Made by a program: the position numbers and the translations under genes. The notes below the pieces were generated by a model. It did not search any database. It was not told the origin of the DNA and saw only the letters and a program-made list of their open reading frames with translations. From contig CAYOZI010000006.1 in NCBI GenBank assembly GCA_964408425.1, positions 1 to 43,569 of the forward strand: a DNA stretch of 43,569 bases, given 5' to 3'. Positions 11,425-21,807 of this stretch are shown in pieces (within the stretch, counting starts at the first letter, position 1; the number at the start of each line of letters is the position of its first letter). This stretch comes from Candidatus Micrarchaeota archaeon (lineage in GTDB: Archaea; Micrarchaeota; Micrarchaeia; Norongarragalinales; Norongarragalinaceae).

Positions 11425-11541
11425 TTAATCGTCCAACAACCGCACAACATCCTTTTTGCTCATTCCCTTCTCGCACTTTTCACAAACAGGGCTTACGCCG
11501 CAACAGTCGTAAAACACTTTCCCGCATTTCTTGCAAATCAT
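11425..11541 (-). CDS. 38-aa Cys-rich microprotein MICKKCGKVFYDCCGVSPVCEKCEKGMSKKDVVRLLDD (not in ORF track)
   Basis: SD GAGGAG; ATG 10 nt after the ccdA-like stop; CxxC..CC..CxxC. Confidence 0.8.
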   Translation of the reverse strand: MICKKCGKVFYDCCGVSPVCEKCEKGMSKKDVVRLLDD

Positions 11542-11551
11542 TTTACTCTCC

Positions 11552-12226
11552 TCACATGAAGCCGCCGTACAAAATCAACAGCCCGAAAGCAACCATCAAA
11601 ACGCCCAAAACCGTTTTGTAGGTTTTCTTGTGCTTGTGCTGGAAACGCTCTATTCCGTCGATCACCTTAGGGTTGGAGGCGAACAGCAAAACAAAAGCCA
11701 GGGGCAAAACGAACATCAAATTGTAAAGCACGAGCAAAGCCAAACCTTGCATTGCGGTGGTTTGCGCGTTCAACAAGCCCAACACCGCCACGTAAATCCC
11801 GCCAGCGCACGGAAACGCGCACAACCCCACCAACAGCCCGGCGACTAGCGCCGCGGGAAGTGTGGCTTTTTCAATGGTTTTGCTGATGTGCGGGGAAGCG
11901 AACTTCGGGATTTTAAGCGTGCTCGTCCCGGCGAAAGCGTCCTTCAAGTCAATCAAGCCCACGAGAATGACGAGGTAAGCGCCGAGCTTGGAAATAAAGT
12001 GGGGGGTGAAGAAAGTGAACACCGTCAAAATTCCCAGTCCGATGAGCAAATACGTGGCGAAAACTCCGAAAATGAACGCCGCGCCCATCAACAAGATTGC
12101 CTTCCGCTGGTGCTCTAACGAAAGCAGGAATGCTATGAAGAAAAGCAAAACCGCAAAACCGCAAGGGTGCAAGCCGTCGATTACTCCAGAAACGGCCACC
12201 AGCGGAATCAGGGTTTCGAAACTCAT
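11552..12226 (-). CDS. CcdA/DsbD-type transmembrane disulfide-reducing protein
   Basis: About 6 TM helices with two conserved PC motifs (DGLHPCG, AFPCAGGIY), LYNL.F.LPL. Confidence 0.85.
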   Translation of the reverse strand: MSFETLIPLVAVSGVIDGLHPCGFAVLLFFIAFLLSLEHQRKAILLMGAAFIFGVFATYLLIGLGILTVFTFFTPHFISKLGAYLVILVGLIDLKDAFAGTSTLKIPKFASPHISKTIEKATLPAALVAGLLVGLCAFPCAGGIYVAVLGLLNAQTTAMQGLALLVLYNLMFVLPLAFVLLFASNPKVIDGIERFQHKHKKTYKTVLGVLMVAFGLLILYGGFM

Positions 12227-12810
12227 TTTATCACGCCCGAATAAAGCAAAACCAAAACCACTAGCGCAACGCCCAGCAGAGCTAGGACTAGCGCGTTCGA
12301 ATCAAACTTCACTTTCAACACGTCCAGCCCGGCAACGCTTTTCCCCGCGTGCGAATCGCATTCGGAAATGGGCTGGCTTATCGGGCATTCCTGAATCACC
12401 CCGTCCTTCAGGTGGAAGTACGAATCTACGTCTCCCATCGAATCCTGCGTCACGACCAGGGAATCGAAATCCTGCGCTTCATCAACCAAAAACTTTTTCA
12501 TTAGTTCAAGCGGAAAATGCCCTTCGAACAAATACTTCCCGTCCACGACAGTTAGCAAGTGCCCCTGCAGTTCAACCGGAACCTTGAATTTATCCTGGAT
12601 TGACGCCACGTCCCCCCTTGCCTCTTGGTCGCTCAAAAAATCCTTGATTTCAATCTGCTTAACTCCGATCGAATCGAGCGTTTGGTAAAGGCTGGAAATG
12701 TAGGAAGTGCAGTGGCCGCAAGCCTCGTTCTTGTAAACTATCGCGCTTTGAGGCGCGTAGGCGAAAACGAGGCCGCTCAAAACCAACAATGCGAATAACA
12801 GCATCTTCAC
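12223..12810 (-). CDS. Exported thioredoxin-fold metal-binding protein (DUF411/CopG-like) with C-terminal TM anchor
   Basis: Signal peptide, VYKNEACGHC, GKYLFEGHFP; start uncertain (12804-12816). Confidence 0.7.
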   Translation of the reverse strand: MKMLLFALLVLSGLVFAYAPQSAIVYKNEACGHCTSYISSLYQTLDSIGVKQIEIKDFLSDQEARGDVASIQDKFKVPVELQGHLLTVVDGKYLFEGHFPLELMKKFLVDEAQDFDSLVVTQDSMGDVDSYFHLKDGVIQECPISQPISECDSHAGKSVAGLDVLKVKFDSNALVLALLGVALVVLVLLYSGVIK

Positions 12811-12865
12811 TGGCAAAACCAACCTTTTTTCTGAAAAAAATAGGGGGCAGGCAGACGGCATTGCG

Positions 12866-13084
12866 TCAACAGCCGCCTACCATGTCGGGCGCGCTCAAAA
12901 GTCCGGCCGGAAGTTGCTGCCCGCTTACCTGGCTTTGCTGTCCGGACGGGACCGAGTAAGACTGAGCGCCGTATGAGTTCATTCCCTGCACCCTGCCGCT
13001 CAACTCCACAAGCTGGAATGCCTGGAAGACGCTCACTAAAACTAAAATCCCTATCAACGCGGCCAAAATCGTCTGTTGTTCCAT
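12866..13084 (-). CDS. 72-aa membrane-anchored protein ending APDMVGGC
   Basis: SD GAGGTG, N-terminal TM helix, S/G/Q-rich linker. Confidence 0.85.
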   Translation of the reverse strand: MEQQTILAALIGILVLVSVFQAFQLVELSGRVQGMNSYGAQSYSVPSGQQSQVSGQQLPAGLLSAPDMVGGC

Positions 13085-13119
13085 GTTTCTCCACCTCAGT
13101 TTTATATTTTATTTCAAAT

Positions 13120-13983
13120 TCAGCATCCGCCGACCATGTCCGGCGCGTTCGCAAGCACGCCACCAGCGCTTCCTGAACTGGTGCTTTGCTGGACTCTTGC
13201 GGGGATGATTCCATGCATTTCGTAATTCATTTTCTCGTCCTCCGACCAACCGCTCGTATCGATTGAGCCTGATGATGCAGGGCTTCCGGAAGACGTCGAA
13301 ATTGCGGATGCCTTGAAATCACGGAATTTTTCCGAAGTCAAGTCTATCGTGTTGATGTTGGAATCCAACCCGGCTGAAGCGAAGGAAATCGCCTTGCTCA
13401 AAACCTGTTTCGGGAAGAACAGCGTCTTCCATTTCCCCATTTCCGCTAGAATCTGGACGTCGGTCATGTCTGGATGGTTTATCAAAAGGTACATAGCCAA
13501 CCCCCTCATAGCAGCCGAATGCTGGCAGCCGCAAGCAGGCTGGCCGTTCGGAAACACCAGGGCATTTGCACCGCAGCAGTATTCGCACGCGATCATCTGG
13601 CCCATAGCCACATAGCGCTGTTGCGCCTGGGCATTCAACTGCGAAAATTTCAGTTTCCCGCCGGGATTCAAGTCGCCGTCGAGCAGTCCGAGAACGGTCA
13701 GGCTTCCTACCGGATCATCGTAACTCACTCCAAGCTCGGTTCCGTAAACAGCCGGAACGCCGGTCGGAATTACCCGGTCGGCCAGGGCTTGAAGGTTTAT
13801 GTTTGAAGCCTGCGAGGCAACCCCGCTTCCCTGGGGTGAGGAAAGGCGGGGTGCCGAATAAAGGGAAATCTGGCTGCTCACGGTCGCGAGTTGATACTGG
13901 TTGAAAGCAAGGATCATGACAAGAACCGCAATAGCAACGTAAACCAAACTCTGCACGTTCTCGTCCTTTTCGTGTTCAGCCAT
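13120..13983 (-). CDS. Membrane-anchored Cys-rich protein (CEYCCG...ACGCQHS) ending APDMVGGC
   Basis: SD GGTGG, N-terminal TM, 5-Cys/His cluster, S/G linkers. Confidence 0.9.
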   Translation of the reverse strand: MAEHEKDENVQSLVYVAIAVLVMILAFNQYQLATVSSQISLYSAPRLSSPQGSGVASQASNINLQALADRVIPTGVPAVYGTELGVSYDDPVGSLTVLGLLDGDLNPGGKLKFSQLNAQAQQRYVAMGQMIACEYCCGANALVFPNGQPACGCQHSAAMRGLAMYLLINHPDMTDVQILAEMGKWKTLFFPKQVLSKAISFASAGLDSNINTIDLTSEKFRDFKASAISTSSGSPASSGSIDTSGWSEDEKMNYEMHGIIPARVQQSTSSGSAGGVLANAPDMVGGC

Positions 13984-14011
13984 CCAAAACCACCATCCGC
14001 TTTTTTTACAC

Positions 14012-14026
14012 TTACAGTTTTTGTAA
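14012..14026. promoter_or_regulatory. Operator TTACA-GTTTT-TGTAA
   Basis: Perfect half-sites, upstream of the leftward MVGGC operon. Confidence 0.7.
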
Positions 14027-14066
14027 AACTTACGAGATTCTCGTGTTTGAAGTGGTTAATAAACCT

Positions 14067-14081
14067 TTGCAGATGTTGTAA
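14067..14081. promoter_or_regulatory. Operator TTGCA-GATGT-TGTAA abutting the TATA box (TTTAAATA 14085-14092) of the repressor gene
   Basis: 1 mismatch to consensus; autoregulatory position. Confidence 0.65.
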
Positions 14082-14114
14082 AGCTTTAAATATTCCGGGG
14101 GGGCAGTCTTGTTT

Positions 14115-14492
14115 ATGGTAGACGTAACTGGCTTCCGCTTCGAGAAGAAGGGTTCCAAAACCAAGGGGCTGAAATCGGTTTTGAGCCCGCTTGAAAGCGA
14201 AGTTCTGGATGTATTGTGCAATTGCCACGAGGCCAAGGTTAGGGAAGTCCACAAGAAGCTGCGCGGAAAATGCGCGCTTACCAGCGTAGCGGTCATACTC
14301 GACAGGCTGCACGACAAAAAACTGGTTTCACGCAAGGCCCACTACGGCAGGGGCGGGCAGCACTACGTTTACAGCGCAAAAGCATCGAAAAAAGATTTGG
14401 AATACTCGGTTTTGGAAAACACGGTGAACAAGCTCATGGAAAGTTTTGGGTCGACTGCAGTAAGCTATTTCAACGAGCGTTTCAAGAAGTAA
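14115..14492 (+). CDS. BlaI/MecI/CopY family transcriptional repressor
   Basis: LSPLESEVLDVL, VREVH, TSVAVILDRLHDKKLVSR winged helix, C-terminal dimerisation helix. Confidence 0.9.
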   Translation: MVDVTGFRFEKKGSKTKGLKSVLSPLESEVLDVLCNCHEAKVREVHKKLRGKCALTSVAVILDRLHDKKLVSRKAHYGRGGQHYVYSAKASKKDLEYSVLENTVNKLMESFGSTAVSYFNERFKK

Positions 14493-14504
14493 TAGGGAAT
14501 AATC

Positions 14505-15257
14505 ATGTTTGAAGAGCTAATGCTTCCGCACCTTTCTAACGCCATAGGAATATTCTTGTCCAACCCGTTCAACGTAAGCATTTCCGTCGCAGCCATGGCT
14601 TTGGCATTGCTTCTGCTGACCAAGCTTACCGACAAGAGCCTTTCGCAAAAAACCAGAATTACACTGATATACGTGCACCTGGCTTTCCTATTCACTCCGC
14701 TGGTTTTGTTTGCAGTATCCCTTTCCTGCCAGTCCGTATCGCTAACCTGCGCAGTAACCCTTACCCAGCTCTTGATCTACTCGATTCCGATAGTGGTAAT
14801 GGCAGCCCTGACTGCAGGGCTAGTCCTCGTGCCTTGGTACTACGAGAAGGCCAGCTCCAAGTCGGCCAAAAGCATACAATCATTCGTCAACAATGAATCC
14901 AGGCGCATGGGTCTCGCGAAAACGCCCCAGGCATTCTCCTTCGATTCCGGAAAGCCCTTTGCGTTCTCCACTTCGTTCTTCAAACCCCGCATTTTCATCA
15001 GCGTAGGAATGCAGGAGGTCCTGACGAAAAAAGAAATGCAAGCCGTACTCCTGCACGAGCTGGCGCACGTTAAAAACTCCTCAGCATGGTTCAAGTTCTC
15101 ATCTTCAATGCTCAAGATTTTCTCGCCTTTTGCCGCGGTACGGGGTTTCGGCTTCAGCATCGATGCCGAAGAGCAAAACGCCGACGCTTACGCAATAATG
15201 CGGCAAAAAACGCTCAGGCACATAAACTCCGCAAAGAAAAAAGTCTCTATAAAGTGA
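14505..15257 (+). CDS. Membrane zinc metalloprotease, M56 (BlaR1-like)/M48 family, lacking a penicillin-binding sensor domain
   Basis: 3 TM helices, PFAF...PRIFIS, AVLLHELAH (HExxH), EEQNAD; directly downstream of the BlaI-like gene. Confidence 0.88.
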   Translation: MFEELMLPHLSNAIGIFLSNPFNVSISVAAMALALLLLTKLTDKSLSQKTRITLIYVHLAFLFTPLVLFAVSLSCQSVSLTCAVTLTQLLIYSIPIVVMAALTAGLVLVPWYYEKASSKSAKSIQSFVNNESRRMGLAKTPQAFSFDSGKPFAFSTSFFKPRIFISVGMQEVLTKKEMQAVLLHELAHVKNSSAWFKFSSSMLKIFSPFAAVRGFGFSIDAEEQNADAYAIMRQKTLRHINSAKKKVSIK

Positions 15258-15303
15258 CCGCGGCTCCACACAAAACTATTTAAATCAGGACCGGCAATTA
15301 CTT

Positions 15304-15318
15304 TTACAAAAGTTGTAA
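15304..15318. promoter_or_regulatory. Operator TTACA-AAAGT-TGTAA over the predicted TSS (TATA TTTAAATC at 15279)
   Basis: Perfect half-sites, 10 nt before the next ATG. Confidence 0.7.
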
Positions 15319-15328
15319 AGGTAAAAGC

Positions 15329-15901
15329 ATGGCGCGCGCGTTTTTGGCATTCTTTTGGAAACGGCCTTTGCTGGCCGGAATAGCCGGAGGGCTTTTCCTG
15401 CTGGCCGTATTCTTCGGGCTCATGCTTGCAACAAACCCGTGGAGCGTGGCGTTGTCGGAATTCAACCGCCTGTTTCCGTGGATCGCCGCGCTTGTAACCG
15501 GTTTTTCAATCCAAGCCTACCTTTACGCGGTGCTCAAAAAATCCATTGCCAAAAAAGCGGCTCTGGCAAAGGCAAAGGGCGGGGTTGCAGCCGCGGGAGG
15601 CATGTCAACAACCGCAATGGTCGCCTGCTGCGCGCACCATTTTACGGATTTCCTGCCCTTCATCGGGCTTGCTGCGTTCGCAACCGTCCTGGCGCAATAC
15701 CAGGAATTCTTTTTGCTCATAGGCGTGCTTTCGAACACGGTTGGAATAGTGATGATGCTAGGGGTTTTCAAGAAAATGGGAATAGACGGGAAGTGCCCGA
15801 TAGTCCGGCATCTCTCCGCTTCGCAATGGGATGTCGCGTTCAAAGCAAGCGCGGTTGCTAGTCTTGCGATAATCGCCGCTTACGCGGCCATATTCCTGTA
15901 A
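15329..15901 (+). CDS. Membrane protein with MVACCAHH motif (putative heavy-metal binding/transport)
   Basis: About 5 TM segments; vicinal CC and HH. Confidence 0.85.
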   Translation: MARAFLAFFWKRPLLAGIAGGLFLLAVFFGLMLATNPWSVALSEFNRLFPWIAALVTGFSIQAYLYAVLKKSIAKKAALAKAKGGVAAAGGMSTTAMVACCAHHFTDFLPFIGLAAFATVLAQYQEFFLLIGVLSNTVGIVMMLGVFKKMGIDGKCPIVRHLSASQWDVAFKASAVASLAIIAAYAAIFL

Positions 15902-15918
15902 AAAAAGAGGTGTGGAAC

Positions 15919-15954
15919 ATGACCGGAAAAAAAAGAAGGGGCGGATGCTGCTGA
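15919..15954 (+). CDS. 11-aa micro-ORF MTGKKRRGGCC (not in ORF track)
   Basis: SD GAGGTG at 15907-15912, 6 nt before ATG; stop overlaps next start (TGATG). Confidence 0.55.
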   Translation: MTGKKRRGGCC

Positions 15955-16268
15955 TGAAAAACGAGTATTTGGTTTACGCAATGCTTTTCGTCGGAGTGCT
16001 CCTCTTGGCTTGGAGCGCGTTCTCGACTTTCGCTAAACCGCAGCTTGACAGGGATGCGAGAGGACTGCTGTTGGAAACGCAGGCGAACGAACAGTATTTC
16101 CAACAACAAGCCCTGCAGGTAGGCAACGAGTGCGGCAACCTGAACGACGAGGCAAACGTCCAGCACCTATCCCACCATCCAAGCCAGTTTGCGGATTGCT
16201 TGAAGCAGGTTGACCCAGCGTTTTTGCAGAAAGCCACCGGAAAAACGCTCGGGCAGATAATCGGATAA
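15954..16268 (+). CDS. Membrane-anchored small protein with C...HLSHHP...C motif
   Basis: N-terminal TM helix, then ECGN...QHLSHHPSQFADC. Confidence 0.8.
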   Translation: MKNEYLVYAMLFVGVLLLAWSAFSTFAKPQLDRDARGLLLETQANEQYFQQQALQVGNECGNLNDEANVQHLSHHPSQFADCLKQVDPAFLQKATGKTLGQIIG

Positions 16269-16287
16269 AAAGCAAGGGGTAAAGCGC

Positions 16288-16503
16288 ATGGCGACATTCA
16301 GGGAACACTGGACAAAACTAAAGGAAAACCATTTCGCAATGATGGCGTTGTGCTGCATCTTGCCCGTAATCATAATCGTGGCCCTTCAGATTGCGGGGTT
16401 TGGAGGCGCTTGGCTGTACACGATCGTGATTGGCGCATGCATAGGGGGACACCTGTTCATGATGCATTCCGCCTTAAAAGGAGGGAAAAAAACATGCCAC
16501 TAG
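16288..16503 (+). CDS. Small 2-TM protein, DUF2933-like (HFAMMALCC..P / CIGGHLFMMH)
   Basis: Cys/His/Met motifs typical of copper-locus small membrane proteins. Confidence 0.75.
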   Translation: MATFREHWTKLKENHFAMMALCCILPVIIIVALQIAGFGGAWLYTIVIGACIGGHLFMMHSALKGGKKTCH

Positions 16504-16610
16504 ACTGGAGAAAGCTGACCGAAAACGCGTTCTGGATGGCGGTTTTCACTGTCGCGTTTGTCGCCATGCAGAAAGTAATGCATCCCGGATGGACTTTATT
16601 CGGATGGTAA
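16494..16610 (+). CDS. 38-aa single-TM Trp/Met-rich peptide MPLDWRK...MHPGWTLFGW
   Basis: SD AGGAGG 8-9 nt upstream; overlaps previous stop. Confidence 0.6.
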   Translation: MPLDWRKLTENAFWMAVFTVAFVAMQKVMHPGWTLFGW

Positions 16611-16642
16611 TGAAGAGGCAGAAGCTGCCCCCGTTAAAAGCG

Positions 16643-16657
16643 TTACAGTTGCAGTAA
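16643..16657. promoter_or_regulatory. Operator TTACA-GTTGC-AGTAA abutting the TATA box TTTAAATA (16661)
   Basis: Same geometry as the 14067 site; upstream of the cupredoxin-copZ-copA run. Confidence 0.6.
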
Positions 16658-16716
16658 AACTTTAAATATCGGCTTCGGTGAAAAAGACTATGAACAAAAA
16701 AGGAGGGGTTGAAAGA

Positions 16717-16968
16717 ATGGATTCAACAAAAACAGGGCTTGCGGCAGGCTCCACTTGGGGAATATTGTACGCGGTTTGCGCGGTTGCATTCACTCTCGCG
16801 CCGGACTTTACTCTCGCCTTCGGAAACTACATTTTCCACGGGATTCTGCTGAACGCCAAACCCTTGGACGCGGCAAATGCTGCGATCGGGCTTGTTTTGA
16901 GCGTGATCGCCGGGTTCGCAATCGGCGCGCTTTACGCCAAGGTTCACAATTATTTCGAAAAAGGCTGA
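16717..16968 (+). CDS. DUF5676-like 2-TM membrane protein
   Basis: LYAVCA, YIFHG, GALYAKVHN pattern; SD GGAGGGG. Confidence 0.75.
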   Translation: MDSTKTGLAAGSTWGILYAVCAVAFTLAPDFTLAFGNYIFHGILLNAKPLDAANAAIGLVLSVIAGFAIGALYAKVHNYFEKG

Positions 16969-17022
16969 AACCTGAAATGCCGGATTGGGGTAAATATAAC
17001 TGCTAAAAAGCGGTGGGTAAAA

Positions 17023-17424
17023 ATGGATAAAGGCGGTTTGGTTCTCGCGGGATTGATATTGCTCGGAATGGCGGGAGTGGGGGCGTTGTTTTTCTTCACT
17101 CCCTCGGCAAGCGCGTCAATCGCAGGAGAGGCTACGCTGGCGGTCCCCCAAGGCGGGGTGCAGATTGTCGAAGTGACCGCAATGAATTACGGCTACAACC
17201 CGGATACCGTAAGGGTGAAGAAAGGCATTCCGGTCGAATTCCGCTTCAAGGCGGACAGGAGCGCGGGGTGCAGCAGGATAATGGTCATTCCGGACTTCGG
17301 GCTTGAATTCTTTTCCAAAAGCGGGGAGACGATAACCAAAACATTCACGCCCACCCAAGCGGGGGAAATCGGCTTCCGCTGCGGAATGAACATGTTCCAA
17401 GGAAAAATAATCGTGGAAAACTGA
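17023..17424 (+). CDS. Membrane-anchored cupredoxin-domain protein (CupA-like)
   Basis: GYNPDTVRVKKGIPV, GCS, FTP..AG, FRCGMNMFQGKIIV. Confidence 0.9.
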   Translation: MDKGGLVLAGLILLGMAGVGALFFFTPSASASIAGEATLAVPQGGVQIVEVTAMNYGYNPDTVRVKKGIPVEFRFKADRSAGCSRIMVIPDFGLEFFSKSGETITKTFTPTQAGEIGFRCGMNMFQGKIIVEN

Positions 17425-17436
17425 GGTTGGAAAAAA

Positions 17437-17637
17437 ATGAAGAAAACGTTCAAGACCAAGGGAATGCACTGCAAAAGCTGCGAAATTCTTTTGAGCGACG
17501 CGATTTCTGAATTGAAAGGCGTCAAGAGCGTGAAAGCTAATTACTCTAAAAACGAGGTTGCCGTGGAATTCGAGCCTCCGGCAAACGAAGCTCAAATCAA
17601 GAAATCGATTGAAAAGGAAGGATACGAGGTAGCTTGA
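17437..17637 (+). CDS. copZ: Copper chaperone (HMA domain)
   Basis: GMHCKSC, IEKEGY; 66 aa. Confidence 0.9.
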   Translation: MKKTFKTKGMHCKSCEILLSDAISELKGVKSVKANYSKNEVAVEFEPPANEAQIKKSIEKEGYEVA

Positions 17638-18599
17638 AAATGAAGTTCGAATACTACGTGAAGAGCGTCGAATGCGATTCTTGCGAGAAAATAATCGCCA
17701 GGGCGGTTTCAAGGTTTCCCGGCGCCAGCCTAGTCGAATCCGACAGGAAGGCGGGAAAAATAACCATCGAATGCGAACCGGGAGACGAGGTGGAAATAAC
17801 CAAGGCGGTCAGGGAAAAAGGCTACGGGTTATCCACAACCCCCTTGGAAAGCAAAGCCGGGAGCGAAGGAAAAAGCTCGCTTGAAACCGCGAAAAACTTT
17901 TTTTCCAGCGTGATCAACGGAAAAAACGGCTTTGAAATAGAAAGAACGCTTTTGGAAAACACGCTCTTGTCGTTCTTTTTGATTATCGGCGCGGAAATCC
18001 TTTTCGCAGTAATTCTGACATCGTTCGGCAAAACGGTTTTGGAAACGTACAAGTGGCTTTTCCTGCTTTTGGCTGTAGGCGTAAGCGCAAACGCTTTTGC
18101 AGTATGGCATTCCATCGCATACCGCAAGGAATTCACTTGCGGAAGCGGAATGATGGTCGGCATGACGCTCGGAATGATGAGCGGATTCATGATCGGCGCG
18201 CTCGTGGCTGCATCAAACGGAATGTTCGTAGGCAGCGTCGTCGGAATTGCAGTCGGCATGCTCGTCGGAGGGTATTGCGGGTATTGCTGCGGAATAATGG
18301 GCTTGCTGGAAGGGCTCATGGCTGGAATAATGGCGGGAATAATGGGGGCTATGACCGCGATAATGCTTTTGAACGACCACATGCTGGAATTCCTCTTCAT
18401 CCTGTTCGGCGCCTGCACCATAGTCCTCGCCGGGCTCAGCTACATGATTTACAAGGAAGCGGGAGGCGAGGGAAGCAAAACAAGCCTGCCTTCAGGCCTT
18501 ACGCTCGTACTGATAAATGTCGGAATGGCGCTGTTGATAGTCTTGATAATGGTTTTAGGACCCAAAGGGCCGCTGGCTTGGGTTGGATTCGGCGGTTGA
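17634..18599 (+). CDS. HMA domain fused to a Met/Gly-rich multi-TM domain
   Basis: SVECDSC...VREKGY then [40 protein letters not shown]. Confidence 0.85.
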
Positions 18600-18606
18600 A
18601 GGAAAA

Positions 18607-20847
18607 ATGAAAAAAAGCGTTTTCGACGTTGTAGGAATGCACTGCGCTTCGTGCAGCATTTTGATAAAACGCAGGCTAGAGAAAACGCCGGGAGTGAAAA
18701 GCGCCAACGTGAATTACGGCAGCGAAAAGGCTACCGTCGAGTTCGACGAAAAGATTTGCAACGAAGGCAAGATTGTTAAAACCGTCGAGCAAACGGGCTA
18801 CAAAGCATTCCCGCGGGCGGAACCGGCAATGCGAATGAACCACGTGCAAATGCAACACGGCACGCGCATGAACCCGTCGATGGGAATGCCCGGGCACGAC
18901 CACGCCGCGATGCTGAAAGAACAGGAAATGAAGGAATTGAAGCTGAAAGTGATCGTTTCAGCCGCATTATCCCTACCAGCACTGGCGCTCGTCATGCTGA
19001 CGCCCGAATTTCAATTCAAAACGCTCATTCTCTTCATTCTCGCCACACCCGTTCAGTTCTGGGCAGGAAAACAATTCTACCAAGGAACCATCTCAGGGTT
19101 TCGGGTTTACAGCGCCAACATGGACACGCTAATTGCAATGGGCACCAGCGCCGCTTACATCTACTCCGTAGCGTCGCTTTTCGGTTTGGTGATGGAGAAT
19201 TACTTTGAAATCGGAGCAATACTCATCACGTTCGTTTTGCTCGGAAAATACCTGGAAGCGTTGGCTAAAGGCAGGGCATCGGAAGCCATCAAAAAACTCA
19301 TGGGCTTAAACCCCAAAACCGCGATCGTAATCAGAAACGGGAGGGAAAATGAAATTCCCATCGAACAAGTCGCTGTCGGGGATAAGATCAGGGTCAGACC
19401 GGGAGAAAAGATTCCGGTCGACGGAATCGTGGTTGAAGGGGATTCGAGCGTCGACGAGAGCATGTTGACGGGCGAATCCTTGCCTGTGGAAAAAACCAAA
19501 GGCTCGAAAATATACGGCGCGACCATCAATAAGCACGGTTCGCTCACGCTCAAAGCCACAAAGGTAGGCAAAGACACCGTCCTCTCGCAAATAATCAAGC
19601 TCGTAGAGGAAGCCCAAGGCTCGCAAGCGCCAATTCAAAGGTTTGCCGACGAAGTTTCAGCAGTATTCGTGCCGATAGTCATAGTAATCGCAGTGATAAC
19701 GCTCGCGGCTTGGCTTTTGCTTTCGCAACCGTTTTCCTTCGCCCTGGTCGCTGCAGTTTCAGTGTTGGTGATAGCCTGCCCCTGCGCCCTCGGACTGGCT
19801 ACGCCCACGGCAATAATGGTCGGGACCGGAATGGGCGCTGAAAAAGGCATTCTGATAAAAAACGCCGTTGCATTGGAAAGGACCGGGAAAATAAACGCCA
19901 TCGTCTGGGACAAGACCGGAACCATTACGGAAGGAAAGCCGAAAGTGACGGACGTCACGGCGTTGGACAAAAACTACTCCGAAAGGAAGATAGTCGAAAT
20001 AGCCGCTTCCCTCGAAAAGCCCAGCGAACACCCGCTCGCGGAAGCCATCGTAAACCACGCTCTTGCAAAGAAAATCAGGATAGTAAAGATTTCTTCGTTC
20101 AAAGCCGTTGCCGGAAAAGGCGTTTTCGGAAAGCTCGGAACGAGGCATTACTTCATCGGCTCCCCGAAAAACCACTCGCAAAACCTCAAGCAGGTCGAAA
20201 CCCTTGAAAACGAGGGAAAGACGGCGATGCTGCTGTTCGAAAGCGACGCTCGCAACAAAAAACTCAAGCCCGTAGGGGTCATAGCCGTAGCAGACACGAT
20301 AAAACCGAACGCGCGGGCTGCCGTGGAAAAGCTGAGGGAAATGGGAATCGAATCGATTCTGCTTACGGGCGACAACGAACGAACCGCTAAAGCGATTGCA
20401 AAGCAAGCGGGAATCGCAATGGTTTTGGCGAACGTCCTTCCCGCGGACAAGGCAGGCGAAATAAAGATATTGCAGAAAACGGGCAAAATAGTAGCCATGG
20501 TTGGAGACGGGATTAACGACGCGCCTGCACTGGCGCAGGCGGACGTGGGAATGGCAATGGCTTCTGGCACTGACATCGCGATGGAATCAGGAAGCATAGT
20601 TTTGATGAAGAACGACGTCGAGGACGCGCCCCGCGCCCTAAACCTCGGAAGGAAAACCCTCAGGAAAATAAAGCTCGGGTTATTTTGGGCAATGGTTTAC
20701 AACATCGTGGGAATCCCGATTGCAGCCGGCGTTTTCTATTACCAAACGGGATGGCTCCTGTCTCCAGCGATAGCAGGCGGGGCGATGGCGTTGAGCAGCG
20801 TCAGCGTAGTCGCCAACGCATTATCCCTTCGCCTGTCGAAAATCTGA
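18607..20847 (+). CDS. copA: Cu(I)-translocating P1B-type ATPase
   Basis: [34 protein letters not shown] and MALSS; His/Met-rich linker. Confidence 0.96.
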
Positions 20848-20886: not shown

Positions 20887-21807
20887 ATGGTATTGTGTTT
20901 CATAGCGTTAGTCGTCTTCGGCATTCTCGGCATATTCTCGGCAAAATACCGCTCTCTGGCAAAAGAAGCGTTCCACTGCGTATTCCAGATGGTAACGCTT
21001 CGTCCATGCGAATCCAGTTTCGACGAAAAACTCAAAGCATCCATCCTAGCGAAAACCCTTTCATTCTCTCCCCGCCTCGCGATCTTCATCAACGACAATT
21101 TCAAAGCCCTGTCGTGGGTATTCACCGTATTGTTCTTCGCATCCTTAGCATATTCTGCGCTGGGGGTTTACAACTACTGGGCGTACGGGAATTGCAACGG
21201 ACCAGAATCCAGCGCCTTTTGCGCCCTGGACGCGTTATTCCGCCCGGGCGCCGAACACTCGTTCGGAACTGTTGAAACGGGAATAGGGCCGGTTTTGGGC
21301 GCGGGAAACGAAACGATAGTGGAATTCGGCTGTTTCTCCTGCCCGTTCACCAAGCAAGCGGAACCAGCGCTGAAAGAATTCCTGTTGCGCAACCCAAACG
21401 TCAAACTGGAATTCAGGGTTTTCCCCATTCCTTCCCACGCGTTCAGCCGCGAGGCGGCCGAAACGGCGTTCTGTGCGAACGAGCAAAACAAGTTCTGGGA
21501 GTACCACGACTTGCTTTTCGAAAGGCAGAAGGAATTCAACCAAGACAACTTCAAAAAGTGGACTGGAGAATTGGGGTTGAACCAAGCGCAGTTTGACGCT
21601 TGCGCCTACTCCGAGAAATACGCGTCTAAAGTGGATAGTGATTTCGAAGAGGGAAAGAAACTGGGCGTATTCGGCACTCCGACGTTCTTCTTTCCGAGCA
21701 CAGGCAGCGTGCTCGTCGGGCCTAGGCAGGCTTGGGAGTTCGAAAACGCTTTGAAACAAAAGATAATCGACAAGGGCGACAGCGGCGTATGCCCTCCGCC
21801 GGTATGA
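20887..21807 (+). CDS. Membrane-anchored DsbA/thioredoxin-fold protein with atypical CFSCPFT active site
   Basis: 2 TM helices, IVEFGCFSCPFT, FP..H, AA..A.CA.EQ.KFW.YHD.LF, GTPTFF. Confidence 0.85.
   Translation: MVLCFIALVVFGILGIFSAKYRSLAKEAFHCVFQMVTLRPCESSFDEKLKASILAKTLSFSPRLAIFINDNFKALSWVFTVLFFASLAYSALGVYNYWAYGNCNGPESSAFCALDALFRPGAEHSFGTVETGIGPVLGAGNETIVEFGCFSCPFTKQAEPALKEFLLRNPNVKLEFRVFPIPSHAFSREAAETAFCANEQNKFWEYHDLLFERQKEFNQDNFKKWTGELGLNQAQFDACAYSEKYASKVDSDFEEGKKLGVFGTPTFFFPSTGSVLVGPRQAWEFENALKQKIIDKGDSGVCPPPV

Follow-up and report, generated by a model that had tools for sequence, protein, structure and literature searches.

A repressor gene and an adjacent membrane protease gene in a Candidatus Micrarchaeota genome appear to form a regulatory switch of a kind described in bacteria. 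The pair lies within positions 11425–20847 of contig CAYOZI010000006.1 (assembly GCA_964408425.1), within the 43,569-nucleotide stretch that we analyzed as a whole and refer to as the window. It is flanked by a leftward operon for thiol-redox-type and Cys-rich membrane proteins, and by a rightward run of genes that ends in a cupredoxin gene, copZ, a gene for a membrane protein with a heavy-metal-associated (HMA) domain, and copA. We propose that the pair works by protease-mediated derepression, like the PetR/PetP (PetRP) system of Synechocystis, and that an extracytoplasmic loop of the protease with a pair of cysteines senses Cu(I) or copper-driven thiol oxidation; in our judgment the case for this reading is about evenly balanced. 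The locus belongs to a DPANN archaeon of a small-genome groundwater lineage, whose assembly has 894 kb in 47 contigs and is 89% complete. Sequence of this genome is carried by 15 DNA runs from groundwater and soil metagenomes, with no RNA run among them. The locus came to attention through an earlier note, made from the sequence alone (the original prediction), which described an archaeal copper regulon apparently run by a BlaI-type repressor and a sensor-less M56 protease. All the sequence features that it named are present in the window. Its interpretation survives in the conserved pair, the loop cysteines and the linkage to cop genes, but the mechanism turns out to be known in kind and the control of copA to be looser than it had supposed.

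In the mechanism that we envisage, a dimeric BlaI-family repressor would bind the sequence TTACA-N5-TGTAA where it abuts the TATA box and B recognition element (TATA/BRE) of the leftward operon, of the repressor gene blaI itself and of a DUF5676 gene, and where it overlaps the start site of a gene for a 190-residue membrane protein. The protease would be a zinc enzyme of the M48/M56 type with three transmembrane (TM) helices and a cytoplasmic active site, without a penicillin-binding sensor domain. Its short extracytoplasmic TM2–TM3 loop would act as the sensor, most likely by binding Cu(I) through the Cys pair or by becoming oxidized in a copper-dependent way. This event would activate the protease, and the repressor would be cleaved or degraded. 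Derepression would then raise expression of the module itself, of an extracytoplasmic thiol- and copper-handling set (proteins ending in LPxMVGGC, a CGHC protein and a DsbD/CcdA-like protein) and of several small membrane proteins, and read-through from the DUF5676 promoter would raise the cupredoxin, CopZ, the HMA membrane protein and CopA. The cleavage of the repressor, the identity of the signal and the co-transcription into copA are the steps that we infer.

The protease gene (14505–15257, forward strand) codes for 250 amino acids. The product passes the cut-offs of both Peptidase_M56 (PF05569; 40 bits, cut-off 31) and Peptidase_M48 (36.1 bits, cut-off 20.3), and its AlphaFold2 model (predicted local distance difference test, pLDDT, 86) has long helices at residues 21–40, 48–73 and 84–116, followed by a protease domain with the HExxH...E arrangement, which we place in the cytoplasm. 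The zinc-binding and catalytic motif HELAH (H184, E185 and H188; 15054–15068, forward strand) and the third ligand, E223, are invariant in alignments of 22 and of 150 sequences. The protein ends at residue 250, with no fourth TM helix and, as the original prediction had it, no penicillin-binding sensor domain; acylation by a beta-lactam cannot be the signal. It scores 23 bits against the blaR1_generic model (cut-off 400), and 18–34 bits against the HtpX equivalog models (cut-offs 245–422); a separate HtpX-like open reading frame (ORF) of 296 residues is present elsewhere in the genome, on contig C7. By fold, its best neighbors in the PDB are structures of Staphylococcus aureus BlaR1 (8exp, 8exq and 8exr; Foldseek E-values of 1.4e-4 to 3.8e-4, TM-scores of 0.53–0.55), with Ste24 behind. 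A profile search of 1.84 billion representative sequences yielded 161 proteins at E 1e-30 or better, and our counts for the family refer to the best 150 of these 161. All 150 are only 140–270 amino acids long, and therefore the family as a whole is without a sensor domain.

We propose as the sensor the loop that joins TM2 to TM3 (residues 74–83; 14724–14753, forward strand). It contains the sequence SCQSVSLTC (residues 74–82), in which Cys75 and Cys82 form a C-x6-C pair, and it lies between the second and third of the long helices in a part of the model with a pLDDT of ~57. The original prediction had singled out this loop and its cysteines, and their conservation is striking: C75 and C82 are as invariant as the zinc ligands and the catalytic glutamate among 22 aligned orthologs, down to 29% identity. 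At least two loop cysteines are found in all 56 DPANN orthologs that cover the loop. Among the best 150 family representatives, 142 cover it, and 138 of these have at least two cysteines (three have one, and one has none). The commonest spacing among the 138 is C-x6-C (85 proteins), followed by C-x11-C (25) and C-x5-C (11). The residues between the cysteines are depleted in lysine (0.9%, versus 7.1% overall) and arginine (1.3% versus 4.3%) and enriched in methionine (6.8% versus 2.5%). The scarcity of Lys and Arg fits a loop on the outer side of the membrane. Some lineages have loops that are rich in both Met and Cys–for example, CMMPMMNCMPMM at the locus L063, and CGAMCMSC.

The repressor (14115–14492, forward strand) is a winged-helix protein of the BlaI/MecI/CopY family. 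The ORF at 14109–14492 matches the Pfam family Penicillinase_R (PF03965) with 53.9 bits (cut-off 22.6) over profile positions 1–95 of 115. Its true start is likely ATG 14115, giving 125 amino acids, rather than TTG 14109, because its orthologs begin with MV(D/K)V... and a TATA box lies ~25 nt before ATG 14115. When its profile was compared to the PDB, the best match was Mycobacterium tuberculosis BlaI (Rv1846c; 2g9w, E 2.3e-7), followed by BlaI (1sd4, E 3.7e-7) and MecI (1okr, E 2e-6). As stated in the original prediction, the protein ends in SYFNERFKK and has no CopY-type CxC tail, and it scores 22.6 bits against the CopY/TcrY equivalog model TIGR02698 (cut-off 121.95). We found no column of invariant Cys, His or Met in an alignment of 30 or more orthologs of the repressor. 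A CNCH motif in the window's repressor was considered as a metal site and rejected; neither this motif nor the one further cysteine is conserved even within the order. There is an invariant C-terminal segment, FG..A..YF(N) (residues 113–122), approximately where we take BlaI and MecI to be cut, although this correspondence is extrapolated beyond the aligned region.

Of 41 genomes in the order, 15 have a protease ortholog (E below 1e-25). A wider scan with one genome per species gave 59 full orthologous loci, labeled Micrarchaeota, Aenigmatarchaeota, Woesearchaeota, Nanoarchaeota or Iainarchaeota, except for five contigs that carry the label of Methanosarcinales metagenome-assembled genomes (MAGs) and one that carries the label of a Binatia MAG. 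A blaI gene is directly upstream of the protease gene in 52 of the 59 loci, which are all the loci with upstream DNA; in the other seven, the protease gene is at a contig end. The two genes are 13 nt apart in the window, and they overlap or abut in L051 and L076. This arrangement supports the view that repressor and protease are a conserved functional unit, and the pair forms a DPANN-wide module. The six contigs with other labels (L068, L060, L065, L070, L074 and L075) carry a complete DPANN-type module, with a pair of MVGGC genes, blaI and the M56 gene, near to the Woesearchaeota versions; they are either mis-binned DPANN contigs or cases of gene transfer.

To locate operators we searched for TTACA-N5-TGTAA with at most one mismatch. 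There are four matches in the 43.6-kb window (at 14012, 14067, 15304 and 16643), all of them intergenic and within the locus, compared to 0.66 expected, and 0 of 100 shuffled sequences reached four or more. The first, O1 (TTACAGTTTTTGTAA, 14012–14026), is in the promoter of the leftward operon, where it abuts an A-rich box before a gene for a 287-residue MVGGC protein; its position is kept in relatives. O2 (TTGCAGATGTTGTAA, 14067–14081) abuts the TATA box of blaI, TTTAAATA. O3 (TTACAAAAGTTGTAA, 15304–15318) separates a TTTAAAT box from the start of the 190-residue membrane protein gene, and is kept in the same genus. O4 (TTACAGTTGCAGTAA, 16643–16657) abuts a TATA box, TTTAAATAT, before the DUF5676 gene. 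Both O2 and O4 end 3–4 nt ahead of TATA boxes of the blaI type, which are themselves ~25 nt before ATG 14115 and ATG 16690, respectively, and this spacing suggests that the blaI and DUF5676 transcripts are leaderless. Placed in this way, the operators would let an archaeal repressor block TFB/TBP or the polymerase.

The association of the operator with these promoters extends to other DPANN species: the 200 nt ahead of blaI contain a predicted operator in 37 of 51 loci, and those ahead of the large MVGGC gene in 25 of 37, against a background of ~0.03 per upstream window. In the whole 894-kb genome the pattern has 12 sites, compared to 15 for a reversed-pattern control, and four of the 12 are within 2.7 kb of one another at this locus. 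The genome has just two perfect sites, both of them here, and every site outside the locus is imperfect. We therefore rejected the operator as the mark of a genome-wide regulon, and conclude that the regulon is local.

The closest known system is PetRP. According to Garcia-Canas et al. (bioRxiv 10.1101/2020.07.31.226407), who worked on Synechocystis sp. PCC 6803, PetR is a BlaI/CopY-type factor and PetP is a BlaR-type protease without a sensor domain, and degradation of PetR needs both PetP and copper. The same source proposes two conserved methionines in the TM2–TM3 loop of PetP as Cu ligands, points out that this loop contacts the sensor domain in BlaR and MecR, and gives the PetR site as GAC-N5-GTC. 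A commentary and a review describe PetRP alike, and the review states that PetRP drives no copper-homeostasis response (PMC10141476). The DPANN module resembles the published architecture of PetRP in having a factor without the CopY copper site beside an M48/M56 protease without the BlaR1 sensor domain, a TM2–TM3 loop as the candidate sensor, an inverted-repeat operator with a 5-nt spacer, and a small local regulon. It differs in its DPANN host with TATA/BRE-type promoters, in an invariant pair of loop cysteines, as putative metal ligands, instead of the two methionines of PetP, and in its targets, which are thiol-redox proteins, unannotated membrane proteins and probably copper export, whereas PetRP swaps plastocyanin and cytochrome c6. 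There is also no sign here of an activator role. The archaeal case stands apart in its domain of life, its type of promoter, its target genes and its use of loop cysteines where PetP has methionines.

The original prediction had called this a proteolytic metal-signaling circuit not known from archaea. Our literature search found no paper on such an archaeal circuit, the PetRP phylogenomic supplement, which might list archaeal homologs, being outside the search, and a term search of DPANN and Micrarchaeota papers also returned nothing on one ('BlaI' matched the name of an author). Within that search the claim stands as regards archaea, but the mechanism itself is known in kind from PetRP.

Of the more distant systems, BlaI/BlaR1 and MecI/MecR1 of staphylococci and Bacillus share with the module the repressor family, the protease fold, the adjacency of the two genes and the predicted autoregulation, and the core of the BlaI/MecI operator is a palindrome of the TACA/TGTA type. 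Unlike those systems, the module is without the fourth TM helix and the penicillin-binding domain, and its repressor gene precedes the protease gene. CopY/TcrY repressors of Firmicutes belong to the same Pfam family, are associated with copZ and copA, and act at a cop-box that is likewise a TACA...TGTA-type operator; they differ in their C-terminal CxC...CxC site for Cu or Zn, which the DPANN repressor does not have, and in their direct metal-induced release, where here the partner is a protease. The BlaI of M. tuberculosis has a sensor-less M56 partner and a 5-nt-spaced palindrome; its signal is, to our knowledge, unknown, and we know of no tie between it and copper genes. On these features the DPANN module belongs with PetRP in architecture, and neither with BlaR1, for want of a sensor domain, nor with CopY, for want of a Cys tail.

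The case for copper as the signal begins with the rightward genes, where the run of cupredoxin, copZ, HMA/Met-rich and copA genes named in the original prediction is confirmed. It comprises genes for a membrane-anchored cupredoxin-like protein (17023–17424; PF13473, 52 bits), a CopZ-type HMA metallochaperone (17437–17637; PF00403, 58.6 bits), a protein of an unannotated family in which an HMA domain (27.3 bits) is fused to a Met/Gly-rich polytopic membrane domain (17634–18599), and CopA (18583–20847), all on the forward strand. CopA is a Cu(I)-type P1B ATPase with matches to E1-E2_ATPase (213.6 bits), Hydrolase and HMA, and with a CPC motif that presumably confers its Cu(I) specificity. The HMA/Met-rich fusion is a candidate new copper-handling membrane protein. 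A gene for a DsbA-like thioredoxin-fold protein (20887–21807, forward strand; PF01323, 64.8 bits), with a CFSC motif and an N-terminal membrane domain containing several cysteines, follows copA in the window; it has the same place in G004, a genome of the same genus without the repressor and protease genes, and it adjoins a NifS-like gene in several relatives.

The pair is linked to cop genes in related genomes, as the original prediction required. Fifteen genomes of the order have the pair; CopA is encoded within 10 kb of it in nine, on another contig in two, and at an undetermined distance in four. Among the 59 DPANN loci, 20 have a copper-related gene (CopA, CopZ, the HMA membrane protein or cupredoxin) and 12 of these have the body of CopA, when by our own estimate a single-copy gene in a ~1-Mb genome would be expected near the pair at ~2% of loci. 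The arrangements vary. In L076, blaI, M56, cupredoxin, copZ and the HMA membrane gene are contiguous; in L070, L075, L081 and L092, the M56 gene is directly followed by the HMA/Met-rich membrane gene, then by cupredoxin; in L061, copZ is divergent from blaI. In several loci the copper genes are within the blaI-M56 operon. Separately, we observed in the genome G030 a CopA copy beside blaI-M56 (G030:C1:709781-712101) that matches in two pieces, one of which has four in-frame stops (one TGA, one TAG and two TAA); an intact CopA gene is 155 kb away, and the copy near the pair may be decaying.

Several observations weigh against the switch as we propose it, or against its hold on copA. By sequence profile, the protease is closer to an HtpX fragment (PDB 3cqb, E 9e-12) than to BlaR1 (E 2.5e-3). 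The spacing of the loop cysteines ranges from 1 to 19 residues, which suits a disulfide staple as well as it suits a metal site. A predicted complex of protease, repressor and Zn scored 0.55, where the best of three controls scored 0.01. Of 80 solved complexes 58 passed the mark that it passed, as against 2 of 110 mismatched pairs. Scores of 0.60 or less, however, came from only 7 of the 80 and from both of the passing mismatches, and a prediction in this band is more often wrong unless the interaction is likely beforehand. The runs share at least 98% of their contacts, and the pLDDT of the partner is at least 76; because the pairing of these two proteins is already likely, we count the prediction as slightly favorable to contact between them, and as weak support. 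As for copA, no operator stands directly before it or before the cupredoxin gene in the window–the shared operator of the original prediction is found at four promoters, but not at these–and only 2 of 15 CopA cases have an operator in the 200 nt ahead of the gene. The copA gene of the window could be reached only by read-through from the DUF5676 promoter, and the cupredoxin gene may have a promoter of its own, in the form of a TAAATATA box ~20 nt ahead of its start. Comparison of four genomes of the same genus revealed no conserved promoter between DUF5676 and cupredoxin, a region that is not itself conserved.

CopA is present without a protease ortholog in 15 of 41 related genomes, and in G015 and G020 it is on another contig even though the contigs are long enough. 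An ArsR/SmtB-like helix-turn-helix gene lies between M56 and CopA in L082 (448–771) and another adjoins CopA in L051 (2640–2966), which suggests that these lineages may have a second, independent regulator of copA. In G004, where CopA is 89–90% identical to that of the window, the gene order is Pelota, SDR, an ORF of 168 codons, cupredoxin, CopZ, the HMA membrane gene, CopA and DsbA, with neither the repressor-protease cassette nor operators, and therefore the cop operon works without the switch. In the light of the operators of the window, of G004 and of the genomes that have CopA alone, the copper regulon of the original prediction is overstated, and control of such a regulon by the pair is putative. 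On this evidence the copper link is real but looser than the original prediction had it, and the conserved core target of the switch would be the MVGGC/thiol-redox operon rather than copA.

That operon contains the commonest neighbor of the pair. Homologs of the large MVGGC gene are present in 36 of the 59 DPANN loci, and ORFs ending in [VIL]GGC in 35 of 58, usually as a large and a small gene together, with the consensus tail LPxMVGGC. In the window these are genes, both on the reverse strand, for a protein of 287 amino acids (13120–13983), with an acidic and His-containing N-terminus, a TM helix, a Cys-rich domain (CEYCC...CGCQH) and the C-terminus ...APDMVGGC, and for one of 72 amino acids (12866–13084), with an N-terminal TM helix, a linker and the same C-terminus. 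More generally, the octapeptide is found at the extreme C-terminus of one large, Cys-rich protein (~220–330 amino acids) and one or two small ones (~60–120 amino acids) per locus, all of them single-pass membrane proteins; it could be a metal-binding tail or a tag for processing or sorting. In an alignment of 30 large MVGGC proteins, C133, C136, C137, C151, C153, H155 and the terminal VGGC are invariant, and the N-termini are often rich in His. Neither of the two proteins of the window matches a Pfam or NCBIfam family even at E-values up to 10, a literature search on 'MVGGC' found nothing relevant by title or abstract, Foldseek found no match to the model of the large protein at E 0.001 or better, and the Atlas gave nothing but 'hypothetical protein' clusters. 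A VIA-wide search with the large protein gave one lead, the thiol oxidoreductase CcmH (2hl7; 79 residues at a root-mean-square deviation of 3.0), at a Z of 6.1 that is below the distinctive level. The lead is otherwise weak (Foldseek E 2.7, Atlas TM 0.39), the remaining VIA matches are to the N-terminal helix only, and the Pfam family CcmH (PF03918) has no match in the genome.

Downstream in the same operon, also on the reverse strand, are three further genes. The first is for a 212-residue membrane-anchored protein with a CGHC motif of the thioredoxin CxxC type (12223–12861). The original prediction called it DUF411-like, and the similarity is there but weak, below the threshold of the family (16.8 bits, cut-off 27). 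The second (11552–12226) is for a six-TM protein resembling the DsbD/CcdA superfamily, with two Pro-Cys motifs in its TM helices, which we take to be a typical CcdA trait. It had been called CcdA, and CcdA-like is as far as that name holds: the protein matches no DsbD or CcdA model in Pfam or NCBIfam, its sole match being to SfLAP (PF11139, 43.8 bits). Its orthologs in the loci of relatives are 42–86% identical, and there too it adjoins the CGHC gene. The end gene of the operon (11425–11541) is for a 38-residue zinc-ribbon-like peptide with six cysteines (CxxC...CC...CxxC), which by TBLASTN is kept within the genus as well as in L077, and which has no family above cut-off. Apart from those two family names, the leftward operon is as the original prediction described it, with both MVGGC proteins and the Cys6 peptide. 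We found no cytochrome c assembly gene (PF01578) in this 89%-complete genome, and therefore the DsbD/CcdA-like, CGHC and Cys-rich proteins probably serve another extracytoplasmic thiol function.

Reductive pathways of the DsbD/ScsB type confer copper tolerance in Proteobacteria. The leftward operon is similar to them in coupling DsbD/CcdA-like, CGHC and Cys-rich extracytoplasmic proteins beside genes for copper export, and unlike them in that none of its products reaches an Scs or DsbD family model; we know of no counterpart in those pathways to the Cys-rich LPxMVGGC proteins.

The nature of these targets raises the possibility that the switch is as we describe but that its signal is thiol-disulfide state, copper acting at most indirectly. 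On this account the Cys pair would sense extracytoplasmic oxidative or disulfide stress, and the induced DsbD/CcdA-like, CGHC and MVGGC proteins would restore reduced thiols on the surface and in the loop itself, thereby closing a negative feedback. It would explain why the best-conserved target under operator control is a Cys-rich gene in an operon with CGHC and DsbD/CcdA-like genes, and the lone CcmH lead, for what it is worth at the scores given above, is to a thiol oxidoreductase. With PF01578 not found in the genome, this thiol pathway probably serves something else, the variable spacing of the cysteines would suit a disulfide between helix ends, and no copper gene was found with the queries used in 39 of the 59 loci. 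Set against this, the enrichment of methionine between the cysteines and the Cys/Met-rich loops of some lineages look like a soft-metal site, genes for a copper chaperone, cupredoxin and the Met-rich HMA membrane protein recur inside the blaI-M56 operon, and the PetP precedent is specific for copper. We regard a purely thiol-based signal as the main rival to our reading, although somewhat unlikely.

A further reading takes the module for a closed thiol relay rather than a simple metal sensor. The LPxMVGGC proteins could be tethered co-sensors, whose C-terminal Met/Cys tails hand Cu(I) to the Cys pair of the loop or form a mixed disulfide with it, and the DsbD/CcdA-like and CGHC proteins could reset the loop; we offer this as a speculative and unlikely reading.

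The rightward genes nearest to the pair are all on the forward strand and mostly without annotation. They code for a 190-residue polytopic membrane protein with a CCAHH motif (15329–15901), kept in the module of relatives; a 118-residue protein that has Cys/His motifs and a TM helix at the N-terminus (15912–16268), with homologs in nine of the 59 DPANN loci; a 71-residue two-TM protein with a CC motif (16288–16503); and a two-TM DUF5676 protein (16678–16968; PF18926, 49.3 bits), whose start is possibly ATG 16690 instead of GTG 16678. The 190- and 118-residue proteins match no Pfam or NCBIfam family even at E-values up to 10, and the 71-residue protein has no annotated family. The Atlas clusters nearest to the CCAHH protein, which has an operator of its own, are of unannotated ('hypothetical protein') members from Woesearchaeota and Chloroflexota.

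In G004 a block of ~5.5 kb that extends from the Cys6 gene to DUF5676 (11425–16968), and so includes blaI and M56, is absent (L117, G004:C54), and in its place, with SDR on one side and cupredoxin on the other, stands the 168-residue ORF, which codes for a membrane protein. Within a single genus the module is either wholly there or wholly missing, in the manner of a cassette. This behavior would fit a third account, in which the LPxMVGGC proteins and their maturation make up a surface or membrane system specific to DPANN, and in which the module regulates that system on an unrelated cue, for example host contact, the state of the envelope or a different thiophilic metal, and is next to copA in this genus only through insertion of the cassette. 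MVGGC genes are indeed commoner at the loci than any copper gene, several products of the cassette (the MVGGC, 190-, 118- and 71-residue proteins) are without an annotated family, and L082 and L051 have other candidate regulators of CopA. It accounts poorly for copper-related genes within ~10 kb at 20 of 59 loci, far above our rough estimate of expectation, and for the variety of their arrangements, some of them within the blaI operon, in several DPANN phyla; the His-rich N-termini and invariant Cys/His motifs of the large MVGGC proteins are also typical of metal handling. We consider this account decidedly unlikely. Finally, direct sensing of metal or redox state by the repressor, as in CopY, with the peptidase as HtpX-like quality control or only as a means of clearing released repressor, has in its favor the HtpX-leaning sequence profile of the peptidase, the CNCH motif and further cysteine of the window's repressor and the direct binding of Cu by CopY-family proteins (reported in the PetRP preprint; bioRxiv 10.1101/2020.07.31.226407), but we judge it very improbable, given that those residues are not conserved in the order, that 30 orthologs share no invariant Cys, His or Met column, that the CopY_TcrY and HtpX equivalog models both score far below cut-off, and that the strict 52/52 pairing together with a separate HtpX-like gene indicates a dedicated partner.

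For the detection of copper by sensor-less BlaR proteases of the PetP type, the PetRP authors have proposed the two loop methionines (bioRxiv 10.1101/2020.07.31.226407). The DPANN protease may offer a sharper handle on sensing by the loop, with a Cys pair that is near-invariant among family representatives in a protein of only 250 residues that we expect to be easy to express. The LPxMVGGC proteins and the cassette-like presence and absence of the module are the most unexpected side results of the analysis, and the LPxMVGGC Cys-rich proteins, the CCAHH membrane protein and the HMA/Met-rich membrane protein are candidates for hitherto unrecognized components of copper and thiol handling outside the cytoplasm. 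If the closed thiol relay were true, the protease would gauge how heavily a surface thiol system of its own is loaded, and LPxMVGGC would stand for a new class of tag, found only in DPANN, that binds metal or directs processing at the C-terminus. If the switch works as we propose, regulated proteolysis of a BlaI-type repressor would extend from bacteria to archaea, acting there on TATA/BRE promoters, and the DPANN archaea, for which few regulators are known, would gain a defined local regulon with a conserved operator.

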